Positions 21,576-61,497 are shown, counted from the first letter of the stretch. The stretch: 64,000 nucleotides of DNA from Candidatus Lernaella stagnicola (GCA_030765525.1 JAVCCK010000030.1:12488-76487); one strand, 5' to 3'. The notes: generated by a model from the letters alone, not told the origin. Numbers and translations: made by a program.

Positions 21576-21685
21576 CGCATCCTCCCAATGATTTCCCTGT
21601 ACCAGCCACGCGCGCACTTCTCCGGTGACTTCCTGTTAATCATTTCTATCGGCGTGAGGGGCGTCGGACTCAAGGTCCGCCGGAG

Positions 21686-41490: not shown

Positions 41491-41542
41491 CTTGGGAAAG
41501 ATACCAGGGTAGTCCCGGTCGCAAAAGAGCGAAGGGGGGTTC

Positions 41543-43699: not shown

Positions 43700-45544
43700 T
43701 CAGCGGGCGGAGTAGATGTCGCGGATCGCCTCTTTGGCGGCACGGCAATCCGGATCGATTTCCAGGGCTTTGACGAAATACAACTCCGCCATGCTCGTAT
43801 CGCCCGCCTCCTTGTGAATGCGGCCGAGGTAGACGTAGGCGGTGGTGTTGCGCTGGTCCACTTTGAGCGCTTCGCGCACGCGGGCCGTCGCATTCTGCAG
43901 CGTTTCAGGAGTTCGTTCGTGGGTTTTGAAATACGCCCATCCCAGGTACACGTGCAGACTGGGCTCGGCGAAACCACGTTCCTGAGCGATGTTCAACGCT
44001 TCGAAACCGCGTTCGAATTCTTCCTGTTCCAGAAGAGCCACGCCCATGCGATAAATTTGATCGGCAGGATCATCGGCTGCGAAATCAAGATGGTCCGGCT
44101 CCATATCTTCCCCCATCGCCAACTCGTCCGGCGCGTCGAAGTCGATGTTCAACCCGTCGTCTTCGGCCGCAGCCACGTTGGTGCGGTCGACCATTTCGCC
44201 GAAATCGTCGTCGGCATTTTCGGCGTCGATATCCGGCAGCTCGCCGATATCGAAATCGTCGAGTTGATCCAGTCCGATTTCATCCGGTTCCGCCTGCCCG
44301 TCGTCGGCATCGGCCAACCGGCCTTCGATAATCTGCTGAAACTCTTCCGCCACGTGCCGCGCGGCGTCCGATTCGACATCGTCCGCCGACGTCTCCGTGG
44401 GAGTCACGTCAGCCGGTCTTTCGTGAATGCTTTGTTCCGCTTCCTCAACGTCGCCGGCCCGACCGCCCCGTACTTCCTCAAGCCGTTGCTTGATTCGCGC
44501 ACGCAGCAAGACCGCCAGAGATTCGGTGGAATCGGCTTGCCGCAAATCGGAGATGTCGACACCCTGCTCGGCCGCTCGGCGCAGAATCTCCGCGGCGAGC
44601 TTCATACTCTCGGCATGGTGGTGTTCGTCCTGACCCGCCGCCGCCGGCTCCGGTTCGGGTTCCTGGGCGACTTCCTCGTGGATACGATCCACGCTTTTTT
44701 CAGCCTGCCGGAACGCCCATTCCCATTTTCCCTCTTCGGCCGTGGGCGCGGCGGTTTCGGTTTCGCCGCGTTTTTTCTTTCGAGAGACGCCGCTGCGGGC
44801 GAATTTCGCGCATTCGATGGTCAGCAGGCCGAAAATCAGGGCGCGCACGTCCGGCGCATCTAGTTCCGACTCCGCGACGATGTCCCCCGGCGTCTTGCCC
44901 TCGCGAATCCATTGGCCGATCTGCTTTTCGGCGTCGGTGACCAACACGTCATCAAGGTCGATCAGCGCGTCCTTGAAGGTTTTCAAGGGCGTCGCGGAGC
45001 GTTTGCGTAACCGATCCTCGATCATCCCGGGGTGATAATATTTGCGGATACCGTCGATCAGCCAACGCAGCGTGCGCTGGGGGTCGGGTAGCTCCTGAGA
45101 ATCGGGCATCTCCTGCTCGTAAAACGCGTAATCGCCGCTGCGCCAGTTGAACAAGCCCATGATATTGCGTTCGTAATAGATGCCCGCCAGACGACGAATT
45201 TGCCCGTACTGGACCATTTTCTGTTCGATCATCAGGTGCAGCGCGGTGGTCTCTTCCGCCTTCGCCTTCGCGCCGAAATTCTGTAACTCTTCACTGGTAA
45301 TGACACCGTGGTGCACTAAAAACAAACCGAACTCGGGCTCCTCGAACAGAAACCGCTCACACAGCACCAAACAGCCTTCGTTCAGGTAGAGCCGAACGCG
45401 GGTCGGATCACCGTCGAAAGAAAGCACACCCCGTTTTTTGGCCTTGAAGAATCCATAAATTAACCTAGCGGGATGAATCTGGGTTAAACTACCCTTAATA
45501 GCGGGCGTTTCTAAGGGGCGAGTGTCGTGATTAATAGGCATCAT
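43700..45544 (-). CDS. DUF4388 (PATAN-associated) N-domain protein with acidic linker and C-terminal TPR repeats
   Basis: N-terminus GSLTQIHPARLIYGFFKAKKRGVLSFDGDPTRVRLYLNEGCLV fits the DUF4388 pattern. A second similar segment follows, then a long acidic region. C-terminal TPRs: YRMGVALLEQEEFERGFEALNIAQERG, AYVYLGRIHKEAGDTSMAELYFVKALEIDP. Confidence 0.6.
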   Translation of the reverse strand: MMPINHDTRPLETPAIKGSLTQIHPARLIYGFFKAKKRGVLSFDGDPTRVRLYLNEGCLVLCERFLFEEPEFGLFLVHHGVITSEELQNFGAKAKAEETTALHLMIEQKMVQYGQIRRLAGIYYERNIMGLFNWRSGDYAFYEQEMPDSQELPDPQRTLRWLIDGIRKYYHPGMIEDRLRKRSATPLKTFKDALIDLDDVLVTDAEKQIGQWIREGKTPGDIVAESELDAPDVRALIFGLLTIECAKFARSGVSRKKKRGETETAAPTAEEGKWEWAFRQAEKSVDRIHEEVAQEPEPEPAAAGQDEHHHAESMKLAAEILRRAAEQGVDISDLRQADSTESLAVLLRARIKQRLEEVRGGRAGDVEEAEQSIHERPADVTPTETSADDVESDAARHVAEEFQQIIEGRLADADDGQAEPDEIGLDQLDDFDIGELPDIDAENADDDFGEMVDRTNVAAAEDDGLNIDFDAPDELAMGEDMEPDHLDFAADDPADQIYRMGVALLEQEEFERGFEALNIAQERGFAEPSLHVYLGWAYFKTHERTPETLQNATARVREALKVDQRNTTAYVYLGRIHKEAGDTSMAELYFVKALEIDPDCRAAKEAIRDIYSAR

Positions 45545-45649
45545 GTACGAAAATTTGTTCGAGTCTCTGGTTGCGTGTCAAGCCACGTGCGAATTTTCCA
45601 CTATTTTCGCCACGTTGGAAAGACTAAATTCCAATTTGTCGAAAAAAAA

Positions 45650-46498
45650 ATGTCCTGCCTGCTGATTATTGCCGCCATATCGGCGCTCTTCGCGGTCTCC
45701 ACATTCGCGGCCGACGACGTTGTCGTGCTGCAACCACGCCACCGGACCGCCCAAAGCCTCCTGCCCGCCCTGGAGGCGGCGGCCGGAAAAACCGCCACCA
45801 TCGGCATCGATTCGCGCACCGGCCGCATCATCGTGCAGGGCGACCAGGCCGCTATCGCCCGGGTCAAAAAAGTCCTGCAGCAACTCGACGTTCCCCTGCG
45901 CAACGTGCTTGTCGAATGGCAGCGCGTCGGCCAAACCGAATACGAAAACCTCGGCATCGACGTCACATGGCGTGTCGAAGGACGCGGCTGGCGCGTGGGC
46001 ACCCTGCCCTTGGAAGGCACCGAACGAGGTGGCCTCGTCGGCACCCGAGGCGGCGTCACCAAACGCATCCACCGCAGCACCGACGCCTCCCGGCAAACCG
46101 TCCGCGTGCTGGAAGGGGGCACCGCCGCCCTGGTGACCGGGCGCAAGCAAGGTTTCTCGCCCGATCGAGTCGCTGTCGGACGTGGGCGGCGCCCGCTGGT
46201 CGCCGGAAGCATTCAAGACGTTCAGGTCTCGTTGATGGTGCGCCCGCGCGTGGTGGGCGAGCAGATTGAGCTGGCCGTGTTCCCGCAGACGGTATGGTTC
46301 ACCGACGCCGGGCGGCAAGTGCAAGTCGCCGAAGATTTGGCCACCGTCGTGCGAATTCAAAGCGGCGAACAGTTCCTACTCGGCTCGGTGACCGGGCAAT
46401 CGCAAACGACGATATTGCAGGGAGTCTTCGAACAACTGGAGCAGAACCACGCGGCGACCGATACCGTCTATTTGATGCGGGCGACCATCGAGCCCTAA
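45650..46498 (+). CDS. short secretin-like protein (secretin N-type domain plus degenerate secretin core)
   Basis: Trimmed to ATG 45650. Signal peptide MSCLLIIAAISALFAVSTFA. VVVLQPRHRTAQSLLPALEAAAGKTATIGIDSRTGRIIVQGDQAAIARVKKVLQQLDVP matches the secretin N / NolW-like short domain. Later segments (TVRVLEGGTAALVTG, VSLMVRPRVVGEQIEL, TVVRIQSGEQFLLGS) resemble the secretin core, but at 282 aa the protein is far shorter than canonical secretins. Confidence 0.5.
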   Translation: MSCLLIIAAISALFAVSTFAADDVVVLQPRHRTAQSLLPALEAAAGKTATIGIDSRTGRIIVQGDQAAIARVKKVLQQLDVPLRNVLVEWQRVGQTEYENLGIDVTWRVEGRGWRVGTLPLEGTERGGLVGTRGGVTKRIHRSTDASRQTVRVLEGGTAALVTGRKQGFSPDRVAVGRGRRPLVAGSIQDVQVSLMVRPRVVGEQIELAVFPQTVWFTDAGRQVQVAEDLATVVRIQSGEQFLLGSVTGQSQTTILQGVFEQLEQNHAATDTVYLMRATIEP

Positions 46499-46501
46499 CG
46501 G

Positions 46502-47767
46502 TTAGGGTATCGGTTGCTTGGCGCGGCGGATTTTCGCGCCCAGCGCGTTGAGCTTGTCGTCCAGGCGTTCGTAGCCGCGATCCAAATGATAGATCCGCAG
46601 CACTTCGGTCACGCTGTCGGCCGCCAGCCCGGCCAACACCAAACTCGCCGACGCGCGCAAATCGGTCGCCATCACCGGCGCGCCGGACAGCAGCGGCACG
46701 CCGCGCACCAGGGCGGTGTTTCCTTCGATGCTGATTTGCGCCCCCATGCGCTGCAATTCCGAGACGTGCATGAAGCGATTCTCAAAAATCGTTTCGGTGA
46801 TCACCGAAAGCCCGTCGGCCAGGCACGCCAGGGCCATCAATTGCGCCTGCATATCGGTGGCGAAGCCCGGATAGGGGCGCGTCTTGACGTCGACGGCGTG
46901 TATGCGGTGCGGACCGATCACGCGCAGGTCGCCGTTTTCCGGCTCGATCGTCAGGCCCGCCTGCCGCAGCTTTTCCACGACGGTCTGCAAATGGTGCAGC
47001 GGCGCGTTTTTCAGCAGGATATTCCCCCGCGTGACGCCGGCGGCGACCATCAGCGTACCGGCCTCGATGCGATCGGCGATCAGGGTTTGTTCGACACCGT
47101 GCAATTCGCTCACGCCCTGAATGCGAATCACGTCGGTGCCGTCGCCCTCGATGCGCGCGCCCATGCCGCGCAGCCAATCGGCCAAGGCGGTGATTTCCGG
47201 TTCCCGCGCCACGTTTTCCAGCACCGTTTCGCCTTCGGCGAGCGCGGCGGCCATCATGAGATTCTCGGTGCCGCCGACGGTGACGAAGTCGAAACATACC
47301 GTGTTGCCGCGCAGACCGTGCGGGGCCGACGCTTCGATGTATCCGTGCTCCACGGTGATTTTCGCGCCCAGCCGCTGCAAACCCCGCAGGTGTTGGTCCA
47401 CCGGTCGCGCGCCGATGGCGCAACCGCCGGGTAGCGAGACGCGGGCCCGGCGCAACCGCGCCACAAGCGGCCCCAAAATGAGCACGCCCGCGCGCATGGT
47501 TTTGACGATTTCATACGGCGCTTCGTGGCCGACCAAGCCGGCCGGATCGACGCGGATGTCGCCGTTCTCGCCGCTCAGCTTCACGCCAAGGCCTTCCAGC
47601 AGCCGTTTGACCGTGCGGATATCGTGCAGTTGCGGCACGTCGCGCAAGGTACTGGGCGCTTCGGTGAGAATCGTGGCGCACAACATCGGCAACGCCGCGT
47701 TTTTCGCCCCGCTTACCCGCACTTCACCCAGCAGCCTCTCGCCGCCGGTGATGACCATTTTTTCCAC
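46502..47767 (-). CDS. murA: UDP-N-acetylglucosamine 1-carboxyvinyltransferase
   Basis: [20 protein letters not shown], the active-site loop [16 protein letters not shown], and [23 protein letters not shown] 47767 is preferred (GAGGAGG 6-7 nt upstream). Confidence 0.93.
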
Positions 47768-47784
47768 AACCGCCTCCTCGCCGC

Positions 47785-48636
47785 TTAGCTGCGGCGTCCG
47801 ATCACTACTCGCTCGATGCCCGCCAGGTCGCAACGCCTCTCGACGCCGTCAAAGCCGCCCGCCGCGAACAACTCGGCTACCGCGTCGGCCTGCCCCGCCC
47901 CGCACTCCACGACCAGCCAACCGGCCGGTTTGAGCGCTTCACGCGCCCGGGGTACGAGCTTGCGAATCACATCCAAACCATCCGGGCCACCGTCCAACGC
48001 CAGGGCGGGATCATACTGCGCGACCTCGGGCATCAGCGTCGCCAAGTCTCCCGAGGCAATATAGGGCGGATTGCTCAGCACGGCGTCGAATCCGCCGGCC
48101 TCGGCATCCAGCAAGCTTACCTCGCACACCTCAACGCGGTCTTCCACCTGGAGCCGCGCAATGTTCTCGCGCGCCAGGTCGGCCGCCTCGGGCGACACTT
48201 CGGTGGCCGTTACGCGCCACGCGGGGCGTTGCTTGGCCAGGCTGACGGCCACGCACCCGCTGCCGGTGCCGACCTCGCACAGCGCGGCGTTTGTTTCCGG
48301 CAGTAACGCGAGCGCCGTTTCCACAAGCAGTTCGGTCTCGGGCCGTGGAACCAGCGCGCGGGCGTCGCAAAGAAAAGACAACCCGTAGAACTCCCGGGTT
48401 CCTACCAAGTGCGCCACCGGTTCGCGGCACCCGCGGCGCCGCACCCATTCGCGCATCGTCGCCAGTTCGCCGGCCTCCAGCGGTTGATCGAAGCGCAAAT
48501 ACAGCCCCACGCGGTCGCAGCCCAATACCTTCGCCAACAGCACTTCGGCATCGAGCCGGGCGCTTTCAATTCCCTTGCCCGCGAAATAGTCGCGACACCA
48601 ATGGAGCAGTTTTAGAACAGTCCAGGTTTCATTCAT
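47785..48636 (-). CDS. prmC: peptide chain release factor N5-glutamine methyltransferase
   Basis: Trimmed to ATG 48636 because the track ORF runs over the tRNA. Has the SAM motif LCEVGTGSGCVAV and the catalytic VLSNPPYI (NPPY). Confidence 0.88.
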   Translation of the reverse strand: MNETWTVLKLLHWCRDYFAGKGIESARLDAEVLLAKVLGCDRVGLYLRFDQPLEAGELATMREWVRRRGCREPVAHLVGTREFYGLSFLCDARALVPRPETELLVETALALLPETNAALCEVGTGSGCVAVSLAKQRPAWRVTATEVSPEAADLARENIARLQVEDRVEVCEVSLLDAEAGGFDAVLSNPPYIASGDLATLMPEVAQYDPALALDGGPDGLDVIRKLVPRAREALKPAGWLVVECGAGQADAVAELFAAGGFDGVERRCDLAGIERVVIGRRS

Positions 48637-48729: not shown

Positions 48730-48847
48730 AAAAATGACACCGGAAAATAGCACGCGGCCACCGCCGGCTCAAGACGAACGATGGGGCCGGCCCCAAGAAA
48801 AAGCGCGGCGGAAACCCGCCGCGCTTTTATGTTTCAATGCTACTCGA

Positions 48848-50605
48848 TCAGCAACCGCAACCGTCGTCGTCGTCGTCATCGTCGTCGGCGCCGTCGCCGC
48901 CGTTGTCGTCGTCGCTGCCGGTCGTGTCATCATCGCCGGTCGTATCGTCGTCACCGATCGTGTCGTCGTCGCCCGTGGTGTCGTCATCACCAACGGTATC
49001 GTCGTCGCTGCCGAACACGGTGATGGTCACCGTGTCGGTGTCGGCATCGGTGCCGTCGTCGACGGTCAGCGTCACGATGATGTCGCCCGCCGTACCGGCC
49101 GTGAAGGTCGTCGCCACGGCAGTCGCGTCATCAAAGGTCACGCCGTCGGCTTCCCACAGGTAGGTCAACGGGTCTTCGTCGGCGTCGGAGGAGCCGCTGC
49201 CGTCCAGGGCCACGGTGTCACCGAGGTCGACTTCTTGATCATCGCCCGCGTCGGCAATCGGCGGGTCATTAAGCTGCGTGTACTTGTAAACCGCCAAGTC
49301 GAACGCGGCGGCATAACCGAGCTTGTTGCTGCCCCAGCCGAAACCGAGTATCGGGTGGCCCCACGGCACGACGGTGTCTTCCTGTTGCCAGGTCAAGCCG
49401 CTGTCATCGGAATACATGATCAGCGCTTTGTAGCTGAAGCTGTTACCGGCCGCGCCGCCCAGGAATCCGATTTGGCCGCTGGGCTGGAAGGACATCGCGC
49501 CCAGCGCGTAAGACGGAGCGCCCGGAATGTTGGGCTGCGGCACGCGGGAAGTCACATCTTCCCAGGTGTCGCCGGCGTCTTCGGAGACCCACAGGTTGTA
49601 GGGATGCGTCGTGTAGACGTGCGGATCGCCCATCACCCAGATGGTGTCCTCATCGACCATTTCGACCCACATGTAGCCATCGCTGGGTGTATCTTGCACT
49701 AGTTCCCAGGTCTGGCCGCCGTCGTGGGTGCGGTAGATTTGGCCGTCGGTGTACTTGCCACCCATCAATTCGGGGTGCTCTTCACGATACTTCAAGCGAT
49801 ACATCGGGTCGTGTTGATACAGCGCGCGATGTTTGGCGCTGCGGTACATCGCCATGGCCTCTTCATAGGTCATTTCGCCCTTGGCCTCGGGTTCGTCTTC
49901 CATCGAGCCGGTGATGATGAAACCGTACTCCGGCGTGATGAAATCGACGTCGTTGAAGTAAGTCTCGTTGTTGCCCGGCGAGTTGATGCGGTTCCAGCTC
50001 GCGCCGCCGTCCTGCGTCCGAATGATGTACTGCGGGCCGCCGACCGCGTACCCGATGGTGTCGTCGGCGTAATCCATCGCGGTGGCCATGTTCATCATGC
50101 TGGCGCCGTTAATCTCGGCCACGGTCCAGTTGATGCCGCCGTCGTTGGAGTACTCAATCATGGTCTGCATTTGGAGCATGCAAACGAACATGCACGCCGG
50201 GAACGGCGTCTGCTCGAGGCATTCCGGGTTGATGCCGAAGCCGATGAGCTGCACGTTGTCCGGACCCGTCGAGTCGACCTGCAGGAACATGTTCATGATC
50301 TGCAGCATCATGCAATCATCGGTTATGTAGGTCATGTCCAATTCGTGAATCGGTACGAATGTCTGGCCGCCGTTGTGCGTGGCCCAAGCGTGCTGAATCG
50401 ACAGCGCGCCACTCTGATACATGCCCACCGTGTAGGCCGTGTCTTCATCCGGCACCGTAATGCCCATGACCGCGGCGTTGGACAAACCCGGCGGGTACGG
50501 CAACGGATCCCAGACTTCTTCCCAGACTCCGTATTCGGCCATCGCCGGCATGGCCCATAGGGCAGCCGCCATGCACAGTGCCAACAAAATACTAACTTTC
50601 TTCAT
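48848..50605 (-). CDS. exported BNR/Asp-box beta-propeller plus PKD-like domain protein with (DDDxx)n tract and C-terminal CGC
   Basis: AGGAGG then ATG 50605. Signal peptide MKKVSILLALCMAAALWAMPAMA. Asp-boxes: SNDGGINWT, TQDGGASWN, THDGGQTWE, SDDSGLTWQ. PKD-like segment: PPIADAGDDQEVDLGDTVALDGSGSSDADEDPLTYLWE. Tail: SDDDTVGDDDTTGDDDTIGDDD...GADDDDDDDDGCGC-stop. Confidence 0.85.
   Translation of the reverse strand: MKKVSILLALCMAAALWAMPAMAEYGVWEEVWDPLPYPPGLSNAAVMGITVPDEDTAYTVGMYQSGALSIQHAWATHNGGQTFVPIHELDMTYITDDCMMLQIMNMFLQVDSTGPDNVQLIGFGINPECLEQTPFPACMFVCMLQMQTMIEYSNDGGINWTVAEINGASMMNMATAMDYADDTIGYAVGGPQYIIRTQDGGASWNRINSPGNNETYFNDVDFITPEYGFIITGSMEDEPEAKGEMTYEEAMAMYRSAKHRALYQHDPMYRLKYREEHPELMGGKYTDGQIYRTHDGGQTWELVQDTPSDGYMWVEMVDEDTIWVMGDPHVYTTHPYNLWVSEDAGDTWEDVTSRVPQPNIPGAPSYALGAMSFQPSGQIGFLGGAAGNSFSYKALIMYSDDSGLTWQQEDTVVPWGHPILGFGWGSNKLGYAAAFDLAVYKYTQLNDPPIADAGDDQEVDLGDTVALDGSGSSDADEDPLTYLWEADGVTFDDATAVATTFTAGTAGDIIVTLTVDDGTDADTDTVTITVFGSDDDTVGDDDTTGDDDTIGDDDTTGDDDTTGSDDDNGGDGADDDDDDDDGCGC
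48851..49006 (-). repeat. 15-bp-period Asp-codon coding repeat ending in TGC GGT TGC
   Basis: GTCGTCATCGCCGGT-like and GTCGTCGTCACCGAT-like 15-mers. Confidence 0.9.
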
Positions 50606-50697
50606 TTCGAAAAACCTCCTGAAATATTATGACGCCGCCAAGCGGGATCCGTTCATCCTTATCCGCGGCTTCGCGGGCCGTGATTCCTCAGCCCCTG

Positions 50698-50727
50698 ATA
50701 CTAGAACGGCCTTATGGAGAGTGTCAA
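50698..50727 (-). promoter_or_regulatory. possible sigma70-like promoter for the 48848-50605 gene
   Basis: On the minus strand: TTGACA (50727-50722), an 18-nt spacer, then TAGTAT (50703-50698). Confidence 0.3.
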
Positions 50728-50741
50728 TCTTTCCGCGTGAC

Positions 50742-51560
50742 TTAATATTGGACATTGGTTCCCAACAAAAGCATCGTCCCTTGCGAGATATTACGACCGT
50801 AGGCGGGATAAATCGCCGTAAAGTCGAAACTCCAGTGGTTACCGGCCTTGATCCCGACTTGAATGTGAGTATAGCCCGCGTCGTAATCCGGGCCGCGCTG
50901 CCAATAGACGGTTTGGGCGTCGTCGGCTTCGTTGCCCACCGAGGAGTGGCCGTCCAGCCGCAGCGTGCCGTAAACGATGTTGTAAGCAAATCCGATTTCC
51001 GCGCCGTACACGTACAGATCGGCCGGATCCTCATCCCGATATCGGTAACCGACGTCAACGCCCACCGTGAACAGAGAGATCTTCACGCCGCCCAGCACGC
51101 GCCCCTCGAGGTCAAGCTGACCGTCGCCCGGCGGTAGCGGCTTGGTTTCGTCGTAAAAATAAGGCAGCTTCACCTTCGCCGACACGCCCAGCGCCGCCCG
51201 GTGACCTCCGATGATCCGCCACAACGTGTCCAACTCCACATCGCCGAGCGCCGTTTCGTTTTCCTCGTCGAATTTGTCGTTGATGTATTGGTTGATCACG
51301 TGAGCCGCGAAACCCAGTTCCACCTTGTCCAGCACCGCCCAACGCAACGTCAAATGACCCCCGATTTCGCGGTAAAACGCCTCGTGCAGATGATGGCGGT
51401 CGCCCTCGCCGTCCAGGTAGTTGCTCGTCACGTAGTAACTCAGGCCCAACCTTCCCATAAGCTGCCGCTCGGACATCGTGAAAGCCGTATCGGCCAGCGC
51501 CGGCACGGCTCCCGCCGTGCACAACACCAGTGCAAAAAGAAAAACGGTAGCTTTTCTCAT
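50742..51560 (-). CDS. outer-membrane beta-barrel protein (family not recognised)
   Basis: Signal peptide MRKATVFLFALVLCTAGAVPALA. Alternating hydrophobic strands throughout. C-terminal beta-signal-like LLLGTNVQY ending in an aromatic residue. Confidence 0.65.
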   Translation of the reverse strand: MRKATVFLFALVLCTAGAVPALADTAFTMSERQLMGRLGLSYYVTSNYLDGEGDRHHLHEAFYREIGGHLTLRWAVLDKVELGFAAHVINQYINDKFDEENETALGDVELDTLWRIIGGHRAALGVSAKVKLPYFYDETKPLPPGDGQLDLEGRVLGGVKISLFTVGVDVGYRYRDEDPADLYVYGAEIGFAYNIVYGTLRLDGHSSVGNEADDAQTVYWQRGPDYDAGYTHIQVGIKAGNHWSFDFTAIYPAYGRNISQGTMLLLGTNVQY

Positions 51561-51765
51561 CTGAAGCTTCCCCTGCTATGTGAATGTCGCACCGCGTCAC
51601 GCATACCACAGCCACATCGGTAATTCAATTTGTTTCCCGCGCGGCTGCGATCCGATCTTACCGGCCCGCCGGGTGAAAACTTGACGCGAGTGAGCCGCTG
51701 CCGTAATCTGCGGTTTCGTGTTTGGTAAATACCCGGGCTCGACAGCCCCTTAAGGAGAAACTCCC

Positions 51766-53514
51766 ATGCAACGAATTTCCGTGGCTCTCATTCTCACTTT
51801 GCTGCTCGTATCGGCCGCCTGGGCCGGCCAGGGTGAGTGGGAATACCTCGACGCCAGCGCGGGCGCGATTAGCTCCGGCTATCTGGCGGTTTCGGCGGTG
51901 GACGACAACAACGCGTTTACCATCGGCATCAACCAATTCTCCGCCTACGGCGCCCAGTGGGCCTGGAAAACCGAAAACGCCGGTGAAACCTGGACCTCCA
52001 TTTTTCAGTTCGAAGGCACCGGCGACGATTGTGACATGGTGAGTTTCTTCACCTTCATGCTCGACGGCGATTGGTACGACATGGACCACGGCGTCGTCGT
52101 GGGCATGGCCGTTCCGGACGAATGCCTGGAAGAGTTCCCCGACATGCCGCAATGCATGTTCGCCTGCATGTTCCGCATGCGCTCGTTCATCTGGACCGTC
52201 ACCGACGGCGGCGAAACCTTTGTGGAACACGACGGCGGCGGCAACATGACCAAAGTCGCCATGGACCTCAAGATCATCGGCGAAACCATTTACGCGGGCG
52301 GCTCGAACGGCTATTTCATCAAAAGCATGGATTTCGGCGACTCGTGGGTAAGCCTGCCCTCACCGGAAACCGGCCTCAATTCCTCCATCACCGACATGTG
52401 GTGGCTGACCCCCGACCTGGGCTACGTGGCCACCGGCGCCCCCGGTGAAGCCGACAAAGGCGAGCCGGCCGACGACGACGAAGCGAAAAGAACCTACTAC
52501 GCCATGCGCGATTACCTCGACTACTTCCGCAACCCGATTCGCCGCATGCAGATGCTCGAAGAGGGCTACGACCCGACCAAGAACGCCGGCGACAAGGCCC
52601 AGTACGGCAACTTGTACAAGACGGTCGACGGCGGCCATAGCTGGGAGAAAGTCTACGACGGCGACGGCGTCTACTCCATTTATCGCTTGCAGTTCCTCGA
52701 TGAGATGAACGGCGTAGTCGTCACCGACGAATGGGCCAGCTCCCACGCCGAAAACACCATCAAGATGACCCACGACGGCGGCATCACCTGGCAGGCGGGC
52801 TCGATTCCCGACACCGGCCCCGACAACTCGAAGTACATCATCAGCGACATCCGCATGCTCACCCCGAGCCTCGGCTACGCCGCGGCGGCGCACCAGCGCG
52901 GCATCGCTGCCTCCTCCCTCGTGCTCGTGACCACCGACGGCGGCGCAACCTGGACCTTCGACACGATCGGCTCGAATCCCGGCTACACCGGCGATCCGCG
53001 CGGTTACGGCTTCATGGCCATGGACTTCGCCAACAACACCCGCGGCTACGGCGTGGGCATGAACCTTTCCGTGGCGCGCTACGCGGGCACCAATGCCGGG
53101 CCGGTGGCTGACGCGGGCGATGACATCGCGGCCGACGCGAATACCGTGGTCACCCTGGACGGCAGCGGCTCCAGCGACCCGGACGAAGACTTGCTGCTCT
53201 ATCTGTGGACCTTGGTTGACGGCCCGGCCGATGTGACCTTGGACGGCGAATTCACCGCCGCGCCGACTTTCACGGCAACCGTGGACGGCGACTACACCTT
53301 CGAACTGCAGGTCTCCGACATCGAATACCAGGATACCGACGAGATGATCGTGACGATCTCCGGCGGAACGCCCGTCGACGACGATGACGACGACACGGTC
53401 GGTGACGACGATACGACCGACGACGACGACACCACGGCGGGCGACGACGACGACGCAAGCCCCGACGCCGGTGACGACGACGACGATGACAACGACGACG
53501 GCTGCGGCTGCTAG
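51766..53514 (+). CDS. exported BNR/Asp-box beta-propeller plus PKD-like domain protein with (DDDxx)n tract and C-terminal CGC (paralogue of 48848-50605)
   Basis: AAGGAG then ATG. Signal peptide MQRISVALILTLLLVSAAWA. Asp-box-like motifs: TENAGETWT, VTDGGETF, TVDGGHSWE, THDGGITWQ, TTDGGATWT. Shares the Cys motif PDECLEEFPDMPQCMFACMF with the paralogue's PECLEQTPFPACMFVCML. PKD-like segment: GPVADAGDDIAADANTVVTLDGSGSSDPDEDLLLYLW. Tail: VDDDDDDTVGDDDTTDDDD...GDDDDDDNDDGCGC-stop. Confidence 0.85.
   Translation: MQRISVALILTLLLVSAAWAGQGEWEYLDASAGAISSGYLAVSAVDDNNAFTIGINQFSAYGAQWAWKTENAGETWTSIFQFEGTGDDCDMVSFFTFMLDGDWYDMDHGVVVGMAVPDECLEEFPDMPQCMFACMFRMRSFIWTVTDGGETFVEHDGGGNMTKVAMDLKIIGETIYAGGSNGYFIKSMDFGDSWVSLPSPETGLNSSITDMWWLTPDLGYVATGAPGEADKGEPADDDEAKRTYYAMRDYLDYFRNPIRRMQMLEEGYDPTKNAGDKAQYGNLYKTVDGGHSWEKVYDGDGVYSIYRLQFLDEMNGVVVTDEWASSHAENTIKMTHDGGITWQAGSIPDTGPDNSKYIISDIRMLTPSLGYAAAAHQRGIAASSLVLVTTDGGATWTFDTIGSNPGYTGDPRGYGFMAMDFANNTRGYGVGMNLSVARYAGTNAGPVADAGDDIAADANTVVTLDGSGSSDPDEDLLLYLWTLVDGPADVTLDGEFTAAPTFTATVDGDYTFELQVSDIEYQDTDEMIVTISGGTPVDDDDDDTVGDDDTTDDDDTTAGDDDDASPDAGDDDDDDNDDGCGC
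53377..53511 (+). repeat. Asp-codon coding repeat ending in TGC GGC TGC
   Basis: GAC/GAT-dominated tract, in frame. Confidence 0.9.
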
Positions 53515-53833: not shown

Positions 53834-54433
53834 ATGATGACAAACGGAACAAACAACGGGGCAAACGGAAGGGGGCGGGTCATGGAACGGTTCATGCCGA
53901 CAGAAGCTCAGGTCGCATTCGCCCAAAGATTAGTGGTTGGCGCGATCCAGGCTGGATTGGTCGCCGGCGAGGAAGCAGCCGGGATGGTCCACGGCGTGCG
54001 GGAAATGGGAATGGCGAGCCGACGCGAAAGCGTTTGCCGGGAGACCCAGCACACCCGCCGGGTAGCAAGCAGCATCATCGATGATCTTATTGGTTTGGGG
54101 GCGGAGCCCGCTGACGGGCCGCTTCCGAGCGAAGAATCGCTTTGCCCGGCCGCGCCGCAAACCCCCATCACCCGCCTGGACGGTCTTGAGATTGACGATT
54201 TGACAGAGTTCGTACCGGCCGAAGTGGCGGAACGGTTTGACCGTTTCGGGATCGGGGCTGACGTTCGGACGTTTGGCGGCTTCCCGACTGATTCAGGCCC
54301 CGCGCCGGTTCAAATCATCGTAGAGGTTGGCGGAGAGAGGGTGGCGCGGGTTCCGGCGGCGGAGTTGGACTTGGCCCAAAGCCACGACGACATCATTCGT
54401 CAGATTCTCTTAGCAGCGAATGAGCAAATCTAA
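53834..54433 (+). CDS. hypothetical protein (prophage-border gene)
   Basis: 199-aa ORF with no recognisable motifs. Supported by the promoter geometry and tight spacing to the next gene. Confidence 0.45.
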   Translation: MMTNGTNNGANGRGRVMERFMPTEAQVAFAQRLVVGAIQAGLVAGEEAAGMVHGVREMGMASRRESVCRETQHTRRVASSIIDDLIGLGAEPADGPLPSEESLCPAAPQTPITRLDGLEIDDLTEFVPAEVAERFDRFGIGADVRTFGGFPTDSGPAPVQIIVEVGGERVARVPAAELDLAQSHDDIIRQILLAANEQI

Positions 54434-54450
54434 CCACCGGCCAAGCCGGG

Positions 54451-54963
54451 ATGGAGGGGGCAATGGCGACGATGACGATGGGCGAGTGGTCTACACTGAA
54501 AGAGGCAGCGGACCTGCTGGGGGTGTCCCCTAAGACCCTTCAGGCACAGTCCAAGAAGGGGAAGATCGCCGCTGTCAAACGAGGGCGGGATCTGTGGATT
54601 TCCGCCGATGAAATCGAGCGGTATCGGCGGGAACATTTAGGTACGCGCCGGGGCGGCTGGCTGACCTCGGAAGAGGCAGCGGTGGCGCTGCTACCGCGAA
54701 TCGCAGCGGTTGGCGAGTTCGTTGACCCAGCGATCCAAACCACATTCAGCGGCGGCGTGTTCCACTTCGCCGTGCCTTGGACGCCGCCCGAATGGCTTTA
54801 CGGCAAGCGCGGGCGGCTGGACAAGACGACCGCCGCACGGGACGGGGAGCGGTATCGAAGGGCCATGAAGCGCAAGCTACGGCTAGCCCTCAAAGCAGCC
54901 AAGCTTGACTACGTGCGCACGAGCGCGCACGTGGAATTTACGCCCCCCGACCGATCTGAGTAG
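54451..54963 (+). CDS. excisionase/MerR-type helix-turn-helix DNA-binding protein
   Basis: EWSTLKEAADLLGVSPKTLQAQSKKGKIAAVKRGRDLWISADEIERYRRE is a typical excisionase-family HTH. The start may instead be the internal ATG 54463 (GGAGG upstream). Confidence 0.6.
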   Translation: MEGAMATMTMGEWSTLKEAADLLGVSPKTLQAQSKKGKIAAVKRGRDLWISADEIERYRREHLGTRRGGWLTSEEAAVALLPRIAAVGEFVDPAIQTTFSGGVFHFAVPWTPPEWLYGKRGRLDKTTAARDGERYRRAMKRKLRLALKAAKLDYVRTSAHVEFTPPDRSE

Positions 54964-55010
54964 ATCAGCAGCCCGCCTCGTCGTGGGCTATTACCTCCGC
55001 CCTCGATTTC

Positions 55011-55050
55011 GGCGGCGACGCGTTTGCTTTCGGGTCGCCGCCGCTTTTAT
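55011..55050 (+). terminator. rho-independent terminator between convergent genes
   Basis: GGCGGCGAC (55011-55019), a 14-nt loop, GTCGCCGCC (55034-55042), then GCTTTTATTT. Confidence 0.6.
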
Positions 55051-55074
55051 TTAATTATCAAAGAGCAAAACCGC

Positions 55075-55662
55075 TCAGGCGGCCGGGGGTCGGCGGATGT
55101 CGAGGACACGGTCTTTCGAGTAGCGGGCGACGGTGACGCAGTCGCCCTGGTTGCCGCCAAGCAGCAGCAGGTCGCCGTTTTCCTCCCCTGCGTAGAACGC
55201 GGAGTGGCCGGTCCAATGGTCCGGAGCGATGCGCCAAAGGACGACGATATCGCCCACGCGCGGCGTGTCGGCCGGCTCGCCATATGCGAGGAAAGAGCGG
55301 GCGTTAGGCCGCTCCGTGCCTTCGAGGCCCGCCTGCTGCAGGCACCAATTCACAAAGGCGGCACACCAGGCGGTTTCGTCGGCCACGTACATTAAGCCGC
55401 TCGAGGCGAGGTATTCCTGGATTCGCGGGTTGTGATCCGGCCCGGCGATTTCCGCCTGGCCGAGCTCGGCCAGCGCGACGCCATACCACGCGGGAACGGC
55501 CGGCTCGGTTTTCGCCAGCAGCGCCTCCGGCCGCAGGGCCACGGGCGGCCGTGCCCGCTTTGGTGACGGCAGCGGCGGCGTGATTCGTCGTTTCGGGCAC
55601 GTAGCCATTCCATACATCCGCCCGAGCCACGCCGCGAATTTGAGCCACCAATTCGTTTTCAT
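55075..55662 (-). CDS. TIGR02594-type (NlpC/P60-CHAP-like) cell-wall hydrolase, putative phage lysin
   Basis: Trimmed to ATG 55662. Has HNPRIQEYLASSGLMYVADETAWCAAFVNWCLQQAGL...ARSFLAYGEPADTPRVGDIVVLWR...GHSAFYAGEENGDLLLLGGNQGDCV. N-terminus is a hydrophobic segment MKTNWWLKFAAWLGRMYGMATC followed by a Pro-rich linker. Confidence 0.75.
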   Translation of the reverse strand: MKTNWWLKFAAWLGRMYGMATCPKRRITPPLPSPKRARPPVALRPEALLAKTEPAVPAWYGVALAELGQAEIAGPDHNPRIQEYLASSGLMYVADETAWCAAFVNWCLQQAGLEGTERPNARSFLAYGEPADTPRVGDIVVLWRIAPDHWTGHSAFYAGEENGDLLLLGGNQGDCVTVARYSKDRVLDIRRPPAA

Positions 55663-55670
55663 GATCTCCC

Positions 55671-56879
55671 CTATGCTTGGTCGCCACCGAACACGGCGAC
55701 GCTGAAGCCGGCGTCGGTCGCAGCGCCGGCCAAATTGACCGTCGTGACGGTGAACCCGGCGATGTTCCACGCGCTCGAGTTTGCGACCGCCGGGCCGCTG
55801 TTGGCCACGGGTGTCACCGCGTAATTCGCCGCGGCAAAATTCCGCTGGAATGTCAGGGCGTAAACCCCGCTGAGGGCGACGTGGTTGACGGCGTTGACAT
55901 TGAGCGAGGCGAGGATCGTCCCGTCGGAATGGACCAGTGCCCACGCCTTGGCGAACGACGCGCCGGTCATCTCGTTTTGCGCCGGCGACGCCGCGGGCGG
56001 GTCGCCGTCTTCCCACTGCATGGTCGAGCCGTCCATGAGCATGAGTTGGCCGCCGTCATCGACGACGACGACGCCCTCGTCGACGAAGAGCCACGCGCCG
56101 TCTTTGATGTAATTGAGCGAGCCGTCATCGAGGAGTAATTGGCCGAAGACCTGAATGTACGCGGCGGCGTCGCACACCAGCGAGGCGTTCGCGCCGGCCA
56201 GTTCAATTTGCGCGTTCGTACCGAGCAGGACGGTGGAGTTGATGCCGAGGTCAATCGACAGGTTCCCGACGTCGGCGATGATTTCGGCGGCGCCGATAAA
56301 ATTGATTGCCGCGTTTTCATCCACCGTCACGTCGGCGAGCTCGTCGATCCAGGCGCCGCGATCGCTATCGGCCAGCACCGCCGCAAATTCATAGCCTGCG
56401 CCTACGCGCGGCACGTCCACCGTGCCGTGTAGATCCGTTCGCACGGTCGGCACGACGGTGATGCCCGCGCCGTCCCAGACCATCGCGCGGCCCAGGACGA
56501 GGTAGATCGTCTCGTCGAGGGAGCCGGTCGCCGCAAAGCGCAGCCACGCGCGATATTCCATCGCGCCGCCGCCCGCGTCGACGGCCTTTGCGTCGATATA
56601 AATATCGTAGGTGCCGGCGTCGACGGGCCCGCCGGCCTCGCCCGCGGTGAGCAAATTGATCGTTTGCGAATACCACGTGTCCATCGTGGCGATGGCGGAG
56701 TAGAGTTTCGCGTCGCCCAAATCGCCCGCCGTAACGGTCGTGCCGGTCCAAATGAGCATCTCGAACCCGGTCCAGTCATACGCGCCGGGCGTGAGCGCGC
56801 CTTGAAAGTTTTTCCCGATCGCGTCCGCTTCGGCGGCGTAAAGCCACGTCACGGCGTCATGCCAATTCTTCACAAGCAT
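55671..56879 (-). CDS. putative tail fibre / receptor-binding protein
   Basis: Sits directly after the gpI/XkdU-like gene (TGATG overlap). Gly/Ala/Val/Asp-rich beta-type sequence with no enzymatic motifs. The call is by synteny only. Confidence 0.5.
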   Translation of the reverse strand: MLVKNWHDAVTWLYAAEADAIGKNFQGALTPGAYDWTGFEMLIWTGTTVTAGDLGDAKLYSAIATMDTWYSQTINLLTAGEAGGPVDAGTYDIYIDAKAVDAGGGAMEYRAWLRFAATGSLDETIYLVLGRAMVWDGAGITVVPTVRTDLHGTVDVPRVGAGYEFAAVLADSDRGAWIDELADVTVDENAAINFIGAAEIIADVGNLSIDLGINSTVLLGTNAQIELAGANASLVCDAAAYIQVFGQLLLDDGSLNYIKDGAWLFVDEGVVVVDDGGQLMLMDGSTMQWEDGDPPAASPAQNEMTGASFAKAWALVHSDGTILASLNVNAVNHVALSGVYALTFQRNFAAANYAVTPVANSGPAVANSSAWNIAGFTVTTVNLAGAATDAGFSVAVFGGDQA

Positions 56880-61488: not shown

Positions 61489-61497
61489 TTTCTTTCC

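Follow-up and report, generated by a model that had tools for sequence, protein, structure and literature searches.

Organization of the locus

Three open reading frames were found at 48848–50605 (minus strand), 50742–51560 (minus strand) and 51766–53514 (plus strand) of the window, i.e. the whole stretch of 64,000 nucleotides of Candidatus Lernaella stagnicola DNA that was analysed. The outer two encode proteins of 585 aa (BNR/PKD-A) and 582 aa (BNR/PKD-B), whose paralogy, proposed in an earlier note on this DNA, is borne out by 33% identity in the family alignment (tblastn E=1.8e-42) and by common domains. Each matches BNR/PSII_BNR/Sortilin-type propellers and carries a K319L-like PKD domain above the Pfam gathering scores (BNR/PKD-A: PSII_BNR 46 bits, K319L-like_PKD 43.7 bits, PKD_4 42.9 bits; BNR/PKD-B: K319L-like_PKD 59.6 bits). 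BNR/PKD-A comprises a signal peptide (MKK...AMPAMA, followed by EYG), a propeller (aa ~27–443) with a helical insert at aa 247–281, a PKD domain (aa 457–531) and a C-terminal tail; BNR/PKD-B has the same architecture behind its own signal peptide (...SAAWA, followed by GQGEW). Both are probably Sec-exported surface proteins.

The AF2 model of BNR/PKD-A (pLDDT 79.7) had Ycf48 as its best Foldseek match (TMt 0.74–0.77). The paralogues share the propeller fold and Asp-box repeats with the seven-bladed BNR propellers of the Ycf48/HCF136 type, but differ from them by the helical insertion, a four-Cys motif and the extra PKD domain, and there is no photosystem II link here. The unusual Cys motifs described previously were located in both paralogues, on four cysteines (C98, C129, C138 and C142) that are invariant in an alignment of 18 family members. 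Distant BNR-propeller homologues from other phyla are likewise exported and carry PF18962, which we take to be the T9SS sorting domain, at their C-terminus. The cargo is thus alike and the tag different: BNR/PKD-A and -B end in poly-Asp-GCGC, whereas the T9SS BNR-propeller proteins of Bacteroidota end in a folded CTD.

The gene between the paralogues (OMP; 50742–51560, minus strand) is co-directional with BNR/PKD-A and divergent from BNR/PKD-B, in agreement with the earlier description. Its 272-aa product has a signal peptide (...VPALA, followed by DTAF), an aromatic C-terminal residue (...NVQY) and no cysteine in the mature protein. The 136-bp spacer between OMP and BNR/PKD-A (50606–50741, minus strand) contains a sigma-70-like TTGACA-18-TAGTAT element at 50727–50698 (10/12 match), which is weak evidence for a promoter, sigma-70-like sites in the region being no more numerous than in shuffles. 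A consensus scan of the divergent intergenic region between OMP and BNR/PKD-B (51561–51765, coordinates from ORF calls) yielded no convincing promoter consensus.

Sequence and conservation of the C-terminal tail

Both paralogues end in a poly-Asp tract and a Cys motif, as claimed before, and read ...DDDDDDDDGCGC or ...DDDDDDNDDGCGC directly before the stop. The BNR/PKD-A tail (aa 535–585; 48851–49003, minus strand) consists of degenerate DDDxx(x) repeats followed by D8-G-C-G-C and a TGA stop codon (48848–48850). It is predicted to be disordered (AF2 pLDDT about 35), and its DNA is made of degenerate 18/36-nt repeats with 72–80% matches. The BNR/PKD-B tail (53362–53511, plus strand; stop codon 53512–53514) has Asp-rich repeats followed by DDDDDDNDD-G-C-G-C, encoded by degenerate 30-nt repeats. 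Directly 3' of the BNR/PKD-A stop lies a putative intrinsic terminator (48798–48824, minus strand), a GC-rich hairpin (GCGCGGCGG-GTTT-CCGCCGCGC) followed by a T-run, which was read directly from the sequence and is absent from the consensus-scan list. A further cluster of three consecutive tailed genes is situated at 17282–21635 (minus strand) and encodes a Kelch/He_PIG protein ending in GCGC and two paralogous proteins of no recognised family ending in FCGC and GCAC.

Of the window's six-frame ORFs with a length of 100 aa or more, only five have a C-x-C end, and each of these contains 12 or more Asp among its last 40 residues. Poly-Asp and the terminal CGC are moreover kept in all 15 full-length orthologues of BNR/PKD-A (P0010–P0024; 38–65% identity). 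A chance pairing of C-x-C with poly-Asp is excluded by these two results, and the concern raised in the earlier note that the tails might not be conserved in orthologues is removed down to 38% identity. The tail occurs in the window, in four MAGs and, according to a DNA-pattern scan, in at least 120 metagenomic stretches, and the tail pattern gave 386 matches in genome representatives; abundance estimates are biased because the loci were mostly chosen for containing tails, and the gene calls are heuristic. The bodies that carry it include Kelch, PKD, BNR, FG-GAP, subtilase (S8), C25/M14/M28 peptidase and phosphatase (Metallophos) domains. The proposal that the tail is a transferable functional module is supported by its conservation in orthologues and by these many unrelated architectures: the tail is modular and under selection.

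The tails conform to the logo D(n)-[DGS]-G-C-G-C, with Gly at position -4 in 100 of 122 tails although this position was left free by the search pattern. They are followed by TGA (73), TAG (25) or TAA (24), and downstream of the stop codons of these 122 tails there is no consistent reading frame or TM segment. Since all three stop codons are in use, no TM segment follows and a putative terminator hairpin lies behind the BNR/PKD-A stop, the GCGC end is the true protein C-terminus. The preceding tract differs in length between orthologues, and its repeats vary freely in length and sequence, in the manner of a spacer.

The variable tract length, together with DNA composed of degenerate 3-, 18-, 30- or 36-nt repeats, would fit a non-functional low-complexity expansion, in which slippage-prone GAC-rich DNA at gene ends gives rise to poly-Asp and CGC is a by-product of composition. 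This explanation is extremely improbable and is effectively refuted by the conservation data, because the terminal CGC is invariant across the orthologues and across unrelated families, Gly -4 is conserved, C-x-C ends occur in the window only with poly-Asp, and all three stop codons are used. The repeats are also degenerate at the DNA level (67–80% matches) and hence old and maintained.

The barrel gene and its neighbourhood

The AF2 model of OMP is a 12-stranded beta-barrel (pLDDT 75.6, pTM 0.72). Its best structural matches in Foldseek were the COG4313 channel 4rl8 (TM 0.70, E=1.6e-8) and FapF (5o65/5o67, TM about 0.64). OMP itself has no direct Pfam or NCBIfam match and is tied to PF13557 by remote sequence links through family members, as its homologue P0007 (1.8e-5) and 10 of 57 distant relatives match this family; at E≤1e-3, the homologues amount to 1178 representative clusters. 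OMP is an outlier within the COG4313/PF13557 channel superfamily, and its fold is FapF-like. It resembles both the COG4313/PF13557 ('Phenol_MetA_deg') channels (Pput2725, PDB 4RL8) and the FapF amyloid-subunit transporter (PDB 5O65) in its 12-stranded barrel of about 250 residues. In contrast to these comparators, its model is devoid of an N-terminal plug helix or coiled-coil, and its gene lies outside any fap or aromatic-degradation operon, in a conserved module of its own.

OMP adjoins BNR/PKD-A, the orthologue kept downstream of it in relatives, in 9 distinct contigs, while a three-gene insertion separates the two in locus L147. An untailed lipoprotein, X, is encoded upstream of OMP in all seven orthologous relatives with upstream sequence (L001, L007–L009 and L144–L146) and also in L147, and is the most constant neighbour of OMP; in the window, the position that X has in relatives is taken up by a Mu-like prophage. 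X (with a poly-Asp stalk), the 12-stranded barrel and BNR/PKD-A, in this order, form a separate conserved three-gene module. The bracketing of OMP by two tailed genes, which was checked on orthologous loci, is unique to this genome. In other genomes, the subfamily-B members with which BNR/PKD-B groups (P0026, L017 and L114) do not adjoin an OMP; there, the paralogue comes after genes for DUF6754 and other membrane proteins.

The earlier note regarded OMP as recurrent and as the candidate partner for secretion or anchoring. Its link to tailed genes stands for BNR/PKD-A, but there is no OMP paralogue at the first tail cluster, and the family that does recur is that of X. X2 (21686–22942, minus strand) is a lipoprotein without poly-Asp stalk that lies beside that cluster and was recognised as a paralogue of X (25–26% identity) by tblastn, blastp against X and L142_416, and alignment. 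Moreover, an OMP homologue is missing from the available flanks of 107 of 118 non-redundant tail genes, and OMP accompanies only the BNR/PKD-A orthologue group, its tandem copy and the BNR/PKD-B of the window. Relatives of OMP occur in other contexts: a 48%-identical one (P0006) is followed by the gene for an N-terminally anchored poly-Asp lipoprotein and has the paralogue X2 and a VIT/VWA gene upstream, and a 30%-identical one (P0008) lies among P450 and glycosyltransferase genes. Because most tail genes have no OMP nearby, X is untailed and OMP relatives occur elsewhere, OMP is not the general partner of the tail, and the barrel gene is not machinery for the tag. Within the module, the barrel is probably a channel or translocon, or a membrane partner, for its two stalked neighbours; a function as an ordinary small-molecule channel like those of COG4313 is just as possible.

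These data also bear on the reading, close to that of the earlier note, that the tail is a secretion signal only. An outer-membrane translocon (the FapF-like barrel at this locus, T2SS or another route for the rest) would recognise the acidic tail and CGC, and the protein would be released rather than anchored. The resemblance to a polypeptide transporter, the conserved adjacency of OMP and BNR/PKD-A, a cargo list typical of secreted hydrolases and a secretin-N protein conserved nearby argue for it. Opposed to this are the disproportion between one OMP and many tails, the untailed state of its constant partner, the tail-free contexts of its relatives, the even better fold match to a small-molecule channel, and a model showing neither the coiled-coil nor the plug of FapF. 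We consider this reading unlikely.

Lipoproteins carrying the mirror image of the tail

Within a protein, tail and lipobox exclude each other: a simple regular expression detected a lipobox in 1 of the 79 tail proteins that have a signal peptide, compared with 48 of 224 untailed secreted proteins (Fisher p=3.7e-6). Of these 48 lipoproteins, 29 have poly-Asp directly after the lipobox Cys, commonly as C-G-D(n)-(DDDxx)n (e.g. C-G-DDDDD), which is the mirror image of the tail. The mirror is literal in the X orthologues, whose alignment shows that they begin with G-C-[TA]-C-G-DDDDD. Two examples lie in the window, a lipoprotein at 14499–15908 (plus strand; lipobox ...VSC, then GDDDDDDDD) and a DUF4397 lipoprotein at 31052–31924 (plus strand; lipobox ...AAC, directly followed by DDDDDDDDDD and (DDDxx)n). 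The former also has a C-terminal (DDDxx)n tract without terminal Cys (...DDDTVGS), and a small 'double poly-Asp' family carries poly-Asp without adjacent Cys at its N-terminus after signal-peptidase-I cleavage. Hence the acidic tract also serves a function that does not depend on Cys, which counts against the tail as a purely Cys-based signal.

In a competing account, poly-Asp would bind Ca2+, Mg2+ or mineral surfaces and CGC a soft metal or metal sulfide; the protein would have neither a lipid nor a covalent anchor and would be held to LPS, an S-layer, particles or extracellular polymers by non-covalent contacts. Ca2+ binding is typical of acidic repeats, and the two cysteines of C-x-C are known to act as ligands for Cu or Zn. 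The 20–35 Asp in the last 40–80 residues of the tails, the tracts that lack an adjacent Cys, and the anoxic, sulfidic lake water and digesters from which the lineage has been reported (PMC9324843, PMC13248872) are consistent with this account. It leaves unexplained the strictly terminal position of the Cys pair with its Gly residues at -4 and -2, the mutual exclusion of tail and lipobox, and the recurrence of the D(n)-G arrangement next to the lipidated Cys in N-terminal lipoproteins; the free, spacer-like variation of the repeats also speaks against it, and its probability is judged to be low.

Alternatively, the tail could be a flexible arm with a redox-active C-G-C dithiol, for which Erv2 with its C-G-C arm and the CXC mimics of protein disulfide isomerase serve as models. 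It would aid oxidative folding of the body, or form intermolecular disulfides that join tail proteins to a partner or to one another in a surface layer. A disordered terminal tail suits a swinging arm, four cysteines are invariant in the body of the BNR/PKD proteins, most tail proteins contain several (an even number in 65, an odd number in 39), and a second Cys capable of pairing follows the lipobox (C-x-C) in some X lipoproteins. Against this, the tail cysteines are the only ones in 8 of 104 tail proteins, OMP cannot be the disulfide partner because its mature form has none, and the lineage has been described mainly as an inhabitant of anoxic zones. Neither the lipobox exclusivity nor the need for 40–80 acidic residues would be accounted for. 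A redox function is distinctly improbable.

Comparison with known signals and proposed mechanism

A Cys anchor adjoining an acidic run and then a folded body is also found in the lipoprotein export signal (LES) of Bacteroidota (C-SDDDD / C-x-K-(D/E)2), where acidic residues just after the lipidated Cys are a proven surface-export signal; this has been demonstrated only in Bacteroidota (Lauber et al. 2016, PMC5080379). The many lipobox-Cys-poly-Asp lipoproteins of the present lineage, which mirror the tail, strengthen the likeness. Unlike LES, the tail is reversed in orientation, is placed at the C-terminus, has no lipobox or signal-peptidase-II site and contains an acidic run 10 times longer.

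GCGC is the published signature of MYXO-CTERM (Haft 2023 bioRxiv 10.1101/2023.06.07.544157), the invariant-Cys motif (TIGR03901) of the myxosortase (MrtX) system of Myxococcota. Processing and display at the surface depend on its Cys residues, and lipidation has been predicted (Haft 2023; Guo, Haft & Wall 2025, PMC11980579). Like the tail, it is C-terminal on Sec-exported proteins with many unrelated bodies; it occurs on dozens of proteins per genome and the tail on 5 of ~53 window genes. The mature MYXO-CTERM protein is predicted to end at the lipidated Cys, exactly where the tail proteins end. The tail differs by lacking the defining tripartite architecture, as neither a TM helix nor an Arg-rich cluster comes after the motif, by needing no cleavage step and by its long poly-Asp stalk before the motif; furthermore, the host belongs to a little-known bacterial lineage that appears to be FEN-1099 (Ca. 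Lernaellota) and not part of Myxococcota. Neither a bona fide myxosortase nor any other candidate sorting enzyme was identified; the only CPBP protease nearby (L001, 4825–5568) was rejected, as it scored below all curated myxosortase cut-offs and has no counterpart in the window. To our knowledge, all known C-terminal anchoring signals (LPXTG, PEP-CTERM, PGF-CTERM, GlyGly-CTERM, MYXO-CTERM) include a TM helix by which the substrate is kept at the membrane for the sorting enzyme, and its lack in the tail counts against an anchor.

Eukaryotic proteins with Rab-type CXC or CaaX prenylation likewise have a flexible hypervariable linker and, behind it, a Cys-x-Cys at the extreme C-terminus. In Rabs, both cysteines are lipidated and anchor the protein. 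Rab/CaaX proteins are cytosolic and modified by cytosolic prenyltransferases, whereas the tail proteins have signal peptides and are exported; we know of no bacterial extracytoplasmic prenyltransferase.

The best explanation of the whole, including the module, is that the tail is a Cys-based C-terminal anchoring or sorting signal on an acidic stalk, to which we assign an even chance of being correct. The two paralogous BNR-propeller and PKD proteins would be exported by Sec and carry a (DDDxx)n-D5-8 stalk, disordered and strongly acidic, with G-C-G-C-COOH at its end. This tag would be functionally equivalent to, and is possibly derived from, the MYXO-CTERM GCGC signature, but would be 'trimmed' from the outset, as the genes encode neither a TM helix nor an Arg cluster for removal. 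After export, one or both terminal Cys thiols would be modified, most likely by lipidation, or otherwise covalently tethered, and the protein would then hang from a membrane, probably at the cell surface, on its poly-Asp stalk, in parallel to the N-terminal lipoproteins of the lineage, in which poly-Asp (commonly G-DDDDD) comes after the lipidated Cys that holds them. The tail is a lineage-wide tag on many unrelated secreted proteins and looks like a new, stripped-down cell-surface anchoring tag.

Proteins of the locus

The three open reading frames claimed in the earlier note were recovered with exact coordinates and strands. They encode BNR/PKD-A (48848-50605, minus strand, 585 aa), a barrel protein (OMP; 50742-51560, minus strand, 272 aa) and BNR/PKD-B (51766-53514, plus strand, 582 aa). 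Both large proteins carry cleavable-looking signal peptides of the Sec type (…AMPAMA|EYG in BNR/PKD-A, …SAAWA|GQGEW in BNR/PKD-B), end in GCGC and match propeller families of the BNR/PSII_BNR/Sortilin type and the K319L-like PKD domain above the gathering scores (cut-offs in brackets): PSII_BNR 46.1 (27), Sortilin-Vps10 45.8 (33) and K319L-like_PKD 43.7/59.6 (27). They are paralogues, as had been proposed, with 33% identity over the full length (tblastn E=1.8e-42), and the cysteine motifs that had been pointed out correspond to four residues (C98, C129, C138 and C142) that are invariant in 18 family members. In Foldseek comparisons, Ycf48 was the nearest match of the propeller (TMt 0.74-0.77), ahead of weaker matches to GH74 enzymes and sialidases. 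The AlphaFold2 model of BNR/PKD-A has a confident body (pLDDT 79.7) and a disordered C-terminal segment (residues 535-585, pLDDT about 35). The TGA stop codon of its gene is directly followed by an apparent terminator, consisting of a GC-rich hairpin and a T-run.

Occurrence and conservation of the tail

The C-terminal tail consists of a poly-Asp tract, (DDDxx)n, that runs into GCGC or, more generally, C-x-C and the stop codon. In a six-frame census of the window (ORFs ≥100 aa), only five ORFs ended in C-x-C (17282-18742, 18877-20190, 20316-21635, 48848-50605 and 51766-53514), out of about 53 genes. All five have at least 12 Asp among their last 40 residues, which shows that the tail is not a chance occurrence. 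When BNR/PKD-A was used as a query against 5.8 billion proteins, 15 of 15 full-length orthologues (38-65% identity) were found to end in poly-Asp plus [SGA]-C-G-C; a more distant BNR/PKD relative, the database protein P0026, ends in …GGCNF. The most conserved pattern picked by a genome-collection scan was the tail itself, with 386 stretches in 185,579 species representatives. Sixteen of these stretches belong to BNR/PKD relatives, spread over four unclassified MAGs that each have 3-5 paralogues; in these loci the tail is also present on a 225-aa protein and a 1257-aa subtilase/FG-GAP protein.

Metagenome searches with the DNA pattern D4-x3-C-G-C-stop returned at least 120 stretches. Among the matches listed, about 95 were long ORFs with a signal peptide and an Asp-rich tail, and a few ORFs of 11-30 aa were chance matches. 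A Pfam census of the 64 non-redundant full-length tail proteins among the matches listed yielded PKD (10), Kelch (9), BNR/Ycf48-like (7), FG-GAP (5), Peptidase_S8 (4) and calcineurin-like/purple acid phosphatase (4) domains as well as C25, M14 and M28 peptidases (2 each). A cargo of this kind is typical of a system dedicated to surface or secretion sorting. The idea that the tail is a transferable module, put forward before any database search, is thus strongly supported by its conservation in orthologues and its presence on many unrelated protein bodies. Distant BNR-propeller homologues in other phyla (Bacteroidota-type) carry at their C-terminus PF18962, the T9SS sorting domain. The sorting tag on like cargo therefore differs from phylum to phylum, in keeping with a sorting role of the tail.

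Sequence and true end of the tail

All 122 collected non-redundant tails end in C-x-C, with C-G-C in 120 of them. Their logo reads D(n)-[D/G/S]-G-C-G-C, and the Gly at position -4, which had been left free by the search pattern, is present in 100/122 tails. The stop codons comprise TGA (73), TAG (25) and TAA (24), and the frames 3' of them are short, unrelated and not hydrophobic. Given three different stops and such downstream frames, stop recoding, selenocysteine incorporation and read-through into a hidden TM helix are excluded, and the second Cys is truly the C-terminus. The DNA repeats that encode the tract are degenerate (67-80% matches), so they are maintained and not a product of recent slippage.

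Variant ends were also observed: GCAC, GCGS, GGCNF and GGCF at 20316-21635 of the window, L006 3242-4240, L139 10001-11767 (P0026) and L147 17784-19403, respectively (L-numbers denote related loci), as well as CCGC, ACGC, SCGC, DCGC, RCGC and VCGC among the metagenome matches listed. A lone Cys with just one or two residues after it (CF, CNF) is reminiscent of CaaX-type ends in short form. A family of small proteins with two poly-Asp tracts (about 205-250 aa; L020, L021, L036 3570-4181, L062, L077, L102, L113 in two copies, and L117) carries one tract directly after the signal-peptidase-I site and the other before GCGC. In L021, L036, L062, L077 and L102 its gene adjoins a member of one recurrent neighbour family; the member that was scanned, a large protein with TPR, is that of L036 (925-3288).

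Fold and family of the barrel

The OMP sequence had no match in Pfam or NCBIfam and none in the PDB by profile sequence search; PF13557 was not matched even at E≤10. Its AlphaFold2 model contains 12 long strands (pLDDT 75.6, pTM 0.72), and its best Foldseek matches were the COG4313 channel Pput2725 (4RL8, chain 4rl8_A, E=1.6e-8, TM 0.70) and FapF, a polypeptide transporter for functional amyloid (TM about 0.64). A profile of the OMP family collected 1178 representative clusters; PF13557 was matched by 10 of 57 distant profile relatives and, at 1.8e-5, by the homologue P0007 (30% identity). Together, the structural matches and the PF13557 links via relatives suggest that the OMP is an outlying branch of the COG4313/PF13557 channel superfamily. 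The model is a 12-stranded β-barrel like Pput2725, whereas the likeness to FapF is confined to the barrel fold: FapF has an N-terminal coiled-coil/plug and is encoded in the fapA-F operon with amyloid subunits, while the OMP model lacks any helix beyond the signal peptide and its gene neighbours are the lipoprotein gene X and BNR/PKD. The barrel may serve its stalked neighbours as a translocon, a role hinted at by the likeness to FapF, or it may be an ordinary channel fed by the surface proteins. The database copy of the OMP, P0001, differs from 50742-51560 by one residue (VCGAE vs VYGAE), indicating strain-level variation.

A conserved three-gene module

The OMP has few close homologues (9 clusters). 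In every relative with a visible neighbourhood (L001/L002, L007, L008, L009, L010, L080, L144 and L145), the order is X, OMP and a tailed BNR/PKD-A gene; L147 carries a three-gene insertion between the latter two, and L146, a fragment with the arrangement of L147, stops short of the BNR/PKD gene. A second tailed BNR/PKD gene follows in L008, L009 and L080. Where the contig reaches further (L001, L008, L080, L144 and L147), prmC and murA come next, in agreement with the window order murA-prmC-BNR/PKD-A-OMP. X encodes a lipoprotein of 435-483 aa with a poly-Asp stalk of 60-70 residues, an otherwise unassigned domain of helices and an amphipathic C-terminus that is conserved. No significant Pfam or NCBIfam match was obtained for X, its window paralogue X2, the 382-aa neighbour of BNR/PKD-A described below or the 225-aa tail protein, and X showed only one TPR-like motif.

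In the window, the place of X upstream of the OMP gene is taken by the divergent BNR/PKD-B gene and then a Mu-like prophage/tail module; the sole counterpart, X2 (21686-22942, minus strand; 25-26% identical to X), lies beside the first tail cluster (17282-21635, minus strand). In other genomes, the B paralogue comes after DUF6754 and small membrane-protein genes, which form a conserved set that lacks an OMP gene. The arrangement with a paralogue on either side of the OMP, described in the earlier note, is thus particular to this genome: relatives have X, OMP and one or two genes of the A type, with B elsewhere.

The OMP had further been suggested as a recurrent partner of the tail. Its linkage to tailed BNR/PKD-A genes is indeed conserved, but an OMP homologue lies within 8 kb of only 11 of 118 non-redundant tail genes, all 11 of them BNR/PKD genes. 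Of the OMP relatives, P0006 (48% identity) has as its downstream neighbour a lipoprotein with poly-Asp after its lipobox, and P0008 (30% identity) is located among P450 and glycosyltransferase genes. A role as general tail partner is ruled out by these linkage counts and tail-free contexts; the barrel belongs to the three-gene module and not to the tail system.

Several neighbouring features were recorded in addition. The prophage/tail module (53834-64000) includes an HTH_17 excisionase-like gene (54451-54963), Mu Gp48 (56879-58480), a gp44-like baseplate hub (60418-61488) and DNA_circ_N (61498-62766); it starts right after BNR/PKD-B, at the site where the gene order shared with relatives (X, sigma-54 activator, aminotransferase) is lost. 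A Secretin_N protein of 271-323 aa with a weak secretin match, too short for a canonical secretin, is encoded next to murA (window 45527-46498, plus strand; L001 15470-16285). Directly downstream of BNR/PKD-A, on the opposite strand, one sub-lineage has a gene of up to 382 aa that is absent from the window (L007 5587-6735, L008 11954-13102, L010 2732-3508 and L080 2705-3700, the last two shortened by contig ends or heuristic start calls); the L008 copy, which was scanned, had no Pfam match. B12-binding radical-SAM paralogues occur in the window (37596-39191 and 40078-41841) and in L040, L061, L076, L103, L108 and L111 (seven tail-selected loci). They were rejected as a tail partner, as they probably represent an abundant family of an anaerobic lineage.

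Mirror-image lipoproteins and proposed terminal anchoring

Lipoboxes ([LVI][ASTG][GA]C at the signal-peptide end) were compared across about 1 Mb of related loci with 791 heuristic gene calls. A match, even a weak one, was found in 1 of 79 signal-peptide-bearing tail proteins vs 48 of 224 other secreted proteins (Fisher p=3.7e-6); BNR/PKD-A and -B have signal-peptidase-I sites of the A-x-A type without a lipobox. In 29 of the 48 lipoproteins, poly-Asp immediately follows the lipobox Cys, with C-G-DDDDD-(DDDxx)n as the commonest form. The window has this arrangement in the products of 14499-15908 (plus strand; VSC-GDDDDDDDD) and 31052-31924 (plus strand; AAC-DDDDDDDDDD). Three X orthologues open with G-C-[TA]-C-G-DDDDD, the literal mirror of DDDDD-G-C-G-C. 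The gene at 14499-15908 (six-frame ORF 14484-15908) combines two devices, its N-terminal motif and a C-terminal (DDDxx)n tract that ends in ...DDDTVGS without Cys; this C-terminus may be a decayed tail or an acidic repeat with its own function.

Acidic residues directly after the lipidated Cys (C-SDDDD) suffice for surface targeting of lipoproteins in Bacteroidota (PMC5080379), and disordered linkers beside the lipid anchor are reported to matter in lipoprotein sorting in E. coli (bioRxiv 10.1101/2021.01.05.425367). On the simplest reading of the sequences, a poly-Asp stalk with a Gly-flanked Cys would be the generic membrane-hanging device of the lineage, with the tail as its C-terminal version. 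We give terminal-Cys anchoring an even chance of being the mechanism of the tail. A purely intramolecular redox role, in which the tail cysteines would act within their own protein, is disfavoured by the 8 of 104 tail proteins that have no other Cys; pairing with the OMP by a disulfide bond is contradicted by the absence of Cys from the mature OMP, which is therefore not such a partner. More tentatively, and with odds somewhat against it, terminal-Cys anchoring may form part of a hitherto undescribed, protease-independent 'mirror-image lipoprotein' pathway. In Lernaellota-like bacteria, an exported protein would end in poly-Asp-G-C-G-C-COOH, without a TM helix or cleavable domain; its terminal cysteine(s) would be lipidated or otherwise covalently tethered, and the protein would be displayed at the cell surface on its acidic stalk.

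Lineage of the tail

The window MurA (46502-47833) shares 74-83% identity with proteins from unclassified 'bacterium' MAGs, as against about 60-67% with Desulfobacterota proteins. A 76%-identical MurA (P0135) is encoded in assembly JAAYVF01 at locus L147, which has the same cassette and a GCGC-tailed BNR/PKD. This MAG is labelled 'Myxococcales bacterium' at NCBI; the GTDB genus JAAYVF01 is assigned to phylum FEN-1099, proposed as Ca. Lernaellota (PMC13248872, 2026). The window therefore probably derives from a Lernaellota-like organism. The Ace Lake description of Lernaellota does not mention these tails (PMC9324843), and literature searches on Lernaellota surface proteins yielded no description.

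Comparison with known sorting systems

No description of an Asp-rich/CGC terminal signal was found in NCBIfam, Pfam or the searchable literature. To our knowledge, LPXTG, PEP-CTERM, PGF-CTERM, GlyGly-CTERM and MYXO-CTERM are all built from three parts (motif, TM helix and basic cluster), and each has its own membrane protease or transpeptidase. MYXO-CTERM is a short motif in the C-terminal region with an invariant Cys, often within GCGC (PMC11980579; Haft 2023, 10.1101/2023.06.07.544157). Both surface display and cleavage by myxosortase, a CPBP protease, have been reported to depend on the motif cysteines; lipidation of the Cys by an Lgt-like enzyme has been proposed, with cleavage just distal to the lipidated residue and the T2SS as carrier to the surface (PMC11980579). 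The tail shares the Cys signature near the C-terminus, and its last residue coincides with that expected of a mature MYXO-CTERM protein on the model of Guo, Haft & Wall, so that by analogy it may work like the end product of MYXO-CTERM. In contrast, it lacks a TM helix after the motif, stopping at the second Cys, and an Arg-rich cytoplasmic cluster at the extreme C-terminus; it has an added poly-Asp stalk and apparently occurs outside Myxococcota. When seven window tail proteins were scanned against NCBIfam, no curated CTERM model was matched, and the sole 'myxo' match reflected PKD-domain homology to NF038112. On the missing helix and Arg cluster, the absence of a CTERM-model match and the phylum, the tail is not a MYXO-CTERM member. 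We class it as a variant among Cys-containing C-terminal sorting signals in another phylum, in which GCGC is kept, the tripartite architecture is gone and a poly-Asp stalk is added.

Tripartite ends (Cys motif, hydrophobic helix, RR/KK) were seen twice in about 1 Mb of related loci (L028 9004-10779 and L132 232-1290), both on contigs with GCGC tails, so both kinds of signal may coexist in the lineage. In L001 (3512-5568), a Peptidase_C25 lipoprotein gene (lipobox and Asp-rich stalk) lies immediately upstream of a gene for a CPBP/Rce1-like protease (4825-5568), about 5 kb from the X-OMP-BNR/PKD cassette. The best curated matches of the protease were the sorting-associated models MrtS (47 bits, cut-off 130), MrtJ (40, cut-off 75), Mrt_core (29, cut-off 100) and MrtC, all well below cut-off, and it has no counterpart within the 64-kb window. 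The two proteins are a possible processing pair; as sorting machinery they were set aside as a weak lead for both reasons.

Type I secretion was ruled out because tail proteins have clear Sec signal peptides and DDDxx repeats, unlike the GGxGxDxUx nonapeptides of RTX proteins, and no RTX Pfam matches. Assignment to the T9SS C-terminal domains, which are folded and about 80 aa long, was rejected, as PF18962 was neither matched in the seven window tail proteins (Pfam) nor among the 25 most frequent of 50 families on the 64 metagenomic tail proteins among the matches listed. Rab-like prenylation was likewise considered and rejected.

Significance

If the tail truly anchors proteins, it would break the tripartite motif-TM-basic rule of C-terminal sorting signals, in that it keeps the Cys signature alone and replaces all else by a poly-Asp stalk. 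Should the mirror-image lipoprotein pathway hold, the tail would be a Cys-based signal for C-terminal sorting in its most reduced form, and a substrate reduced to the bare motif would offer a direct handle on the unknown enzyme that modifies the MYXO-CTERM Cys. With its three genes, the X-barrel-BNR/PKD module is tractable enough to test how stalk-anchored proteins cooperate with a FapF/COG4313-like barrel. The presumed host lineage is a barely studied candidate phylum of anoxic lakes and digesters, for which the tail provides a simple sequence rule to recognise the secretome. Carried by 5 of about 53 window genes and by a large, hydrolase-rich exported set in metagenomes, the tail would in that case shape the entire surface of these bacteria and their capacity for extracellular degradation.
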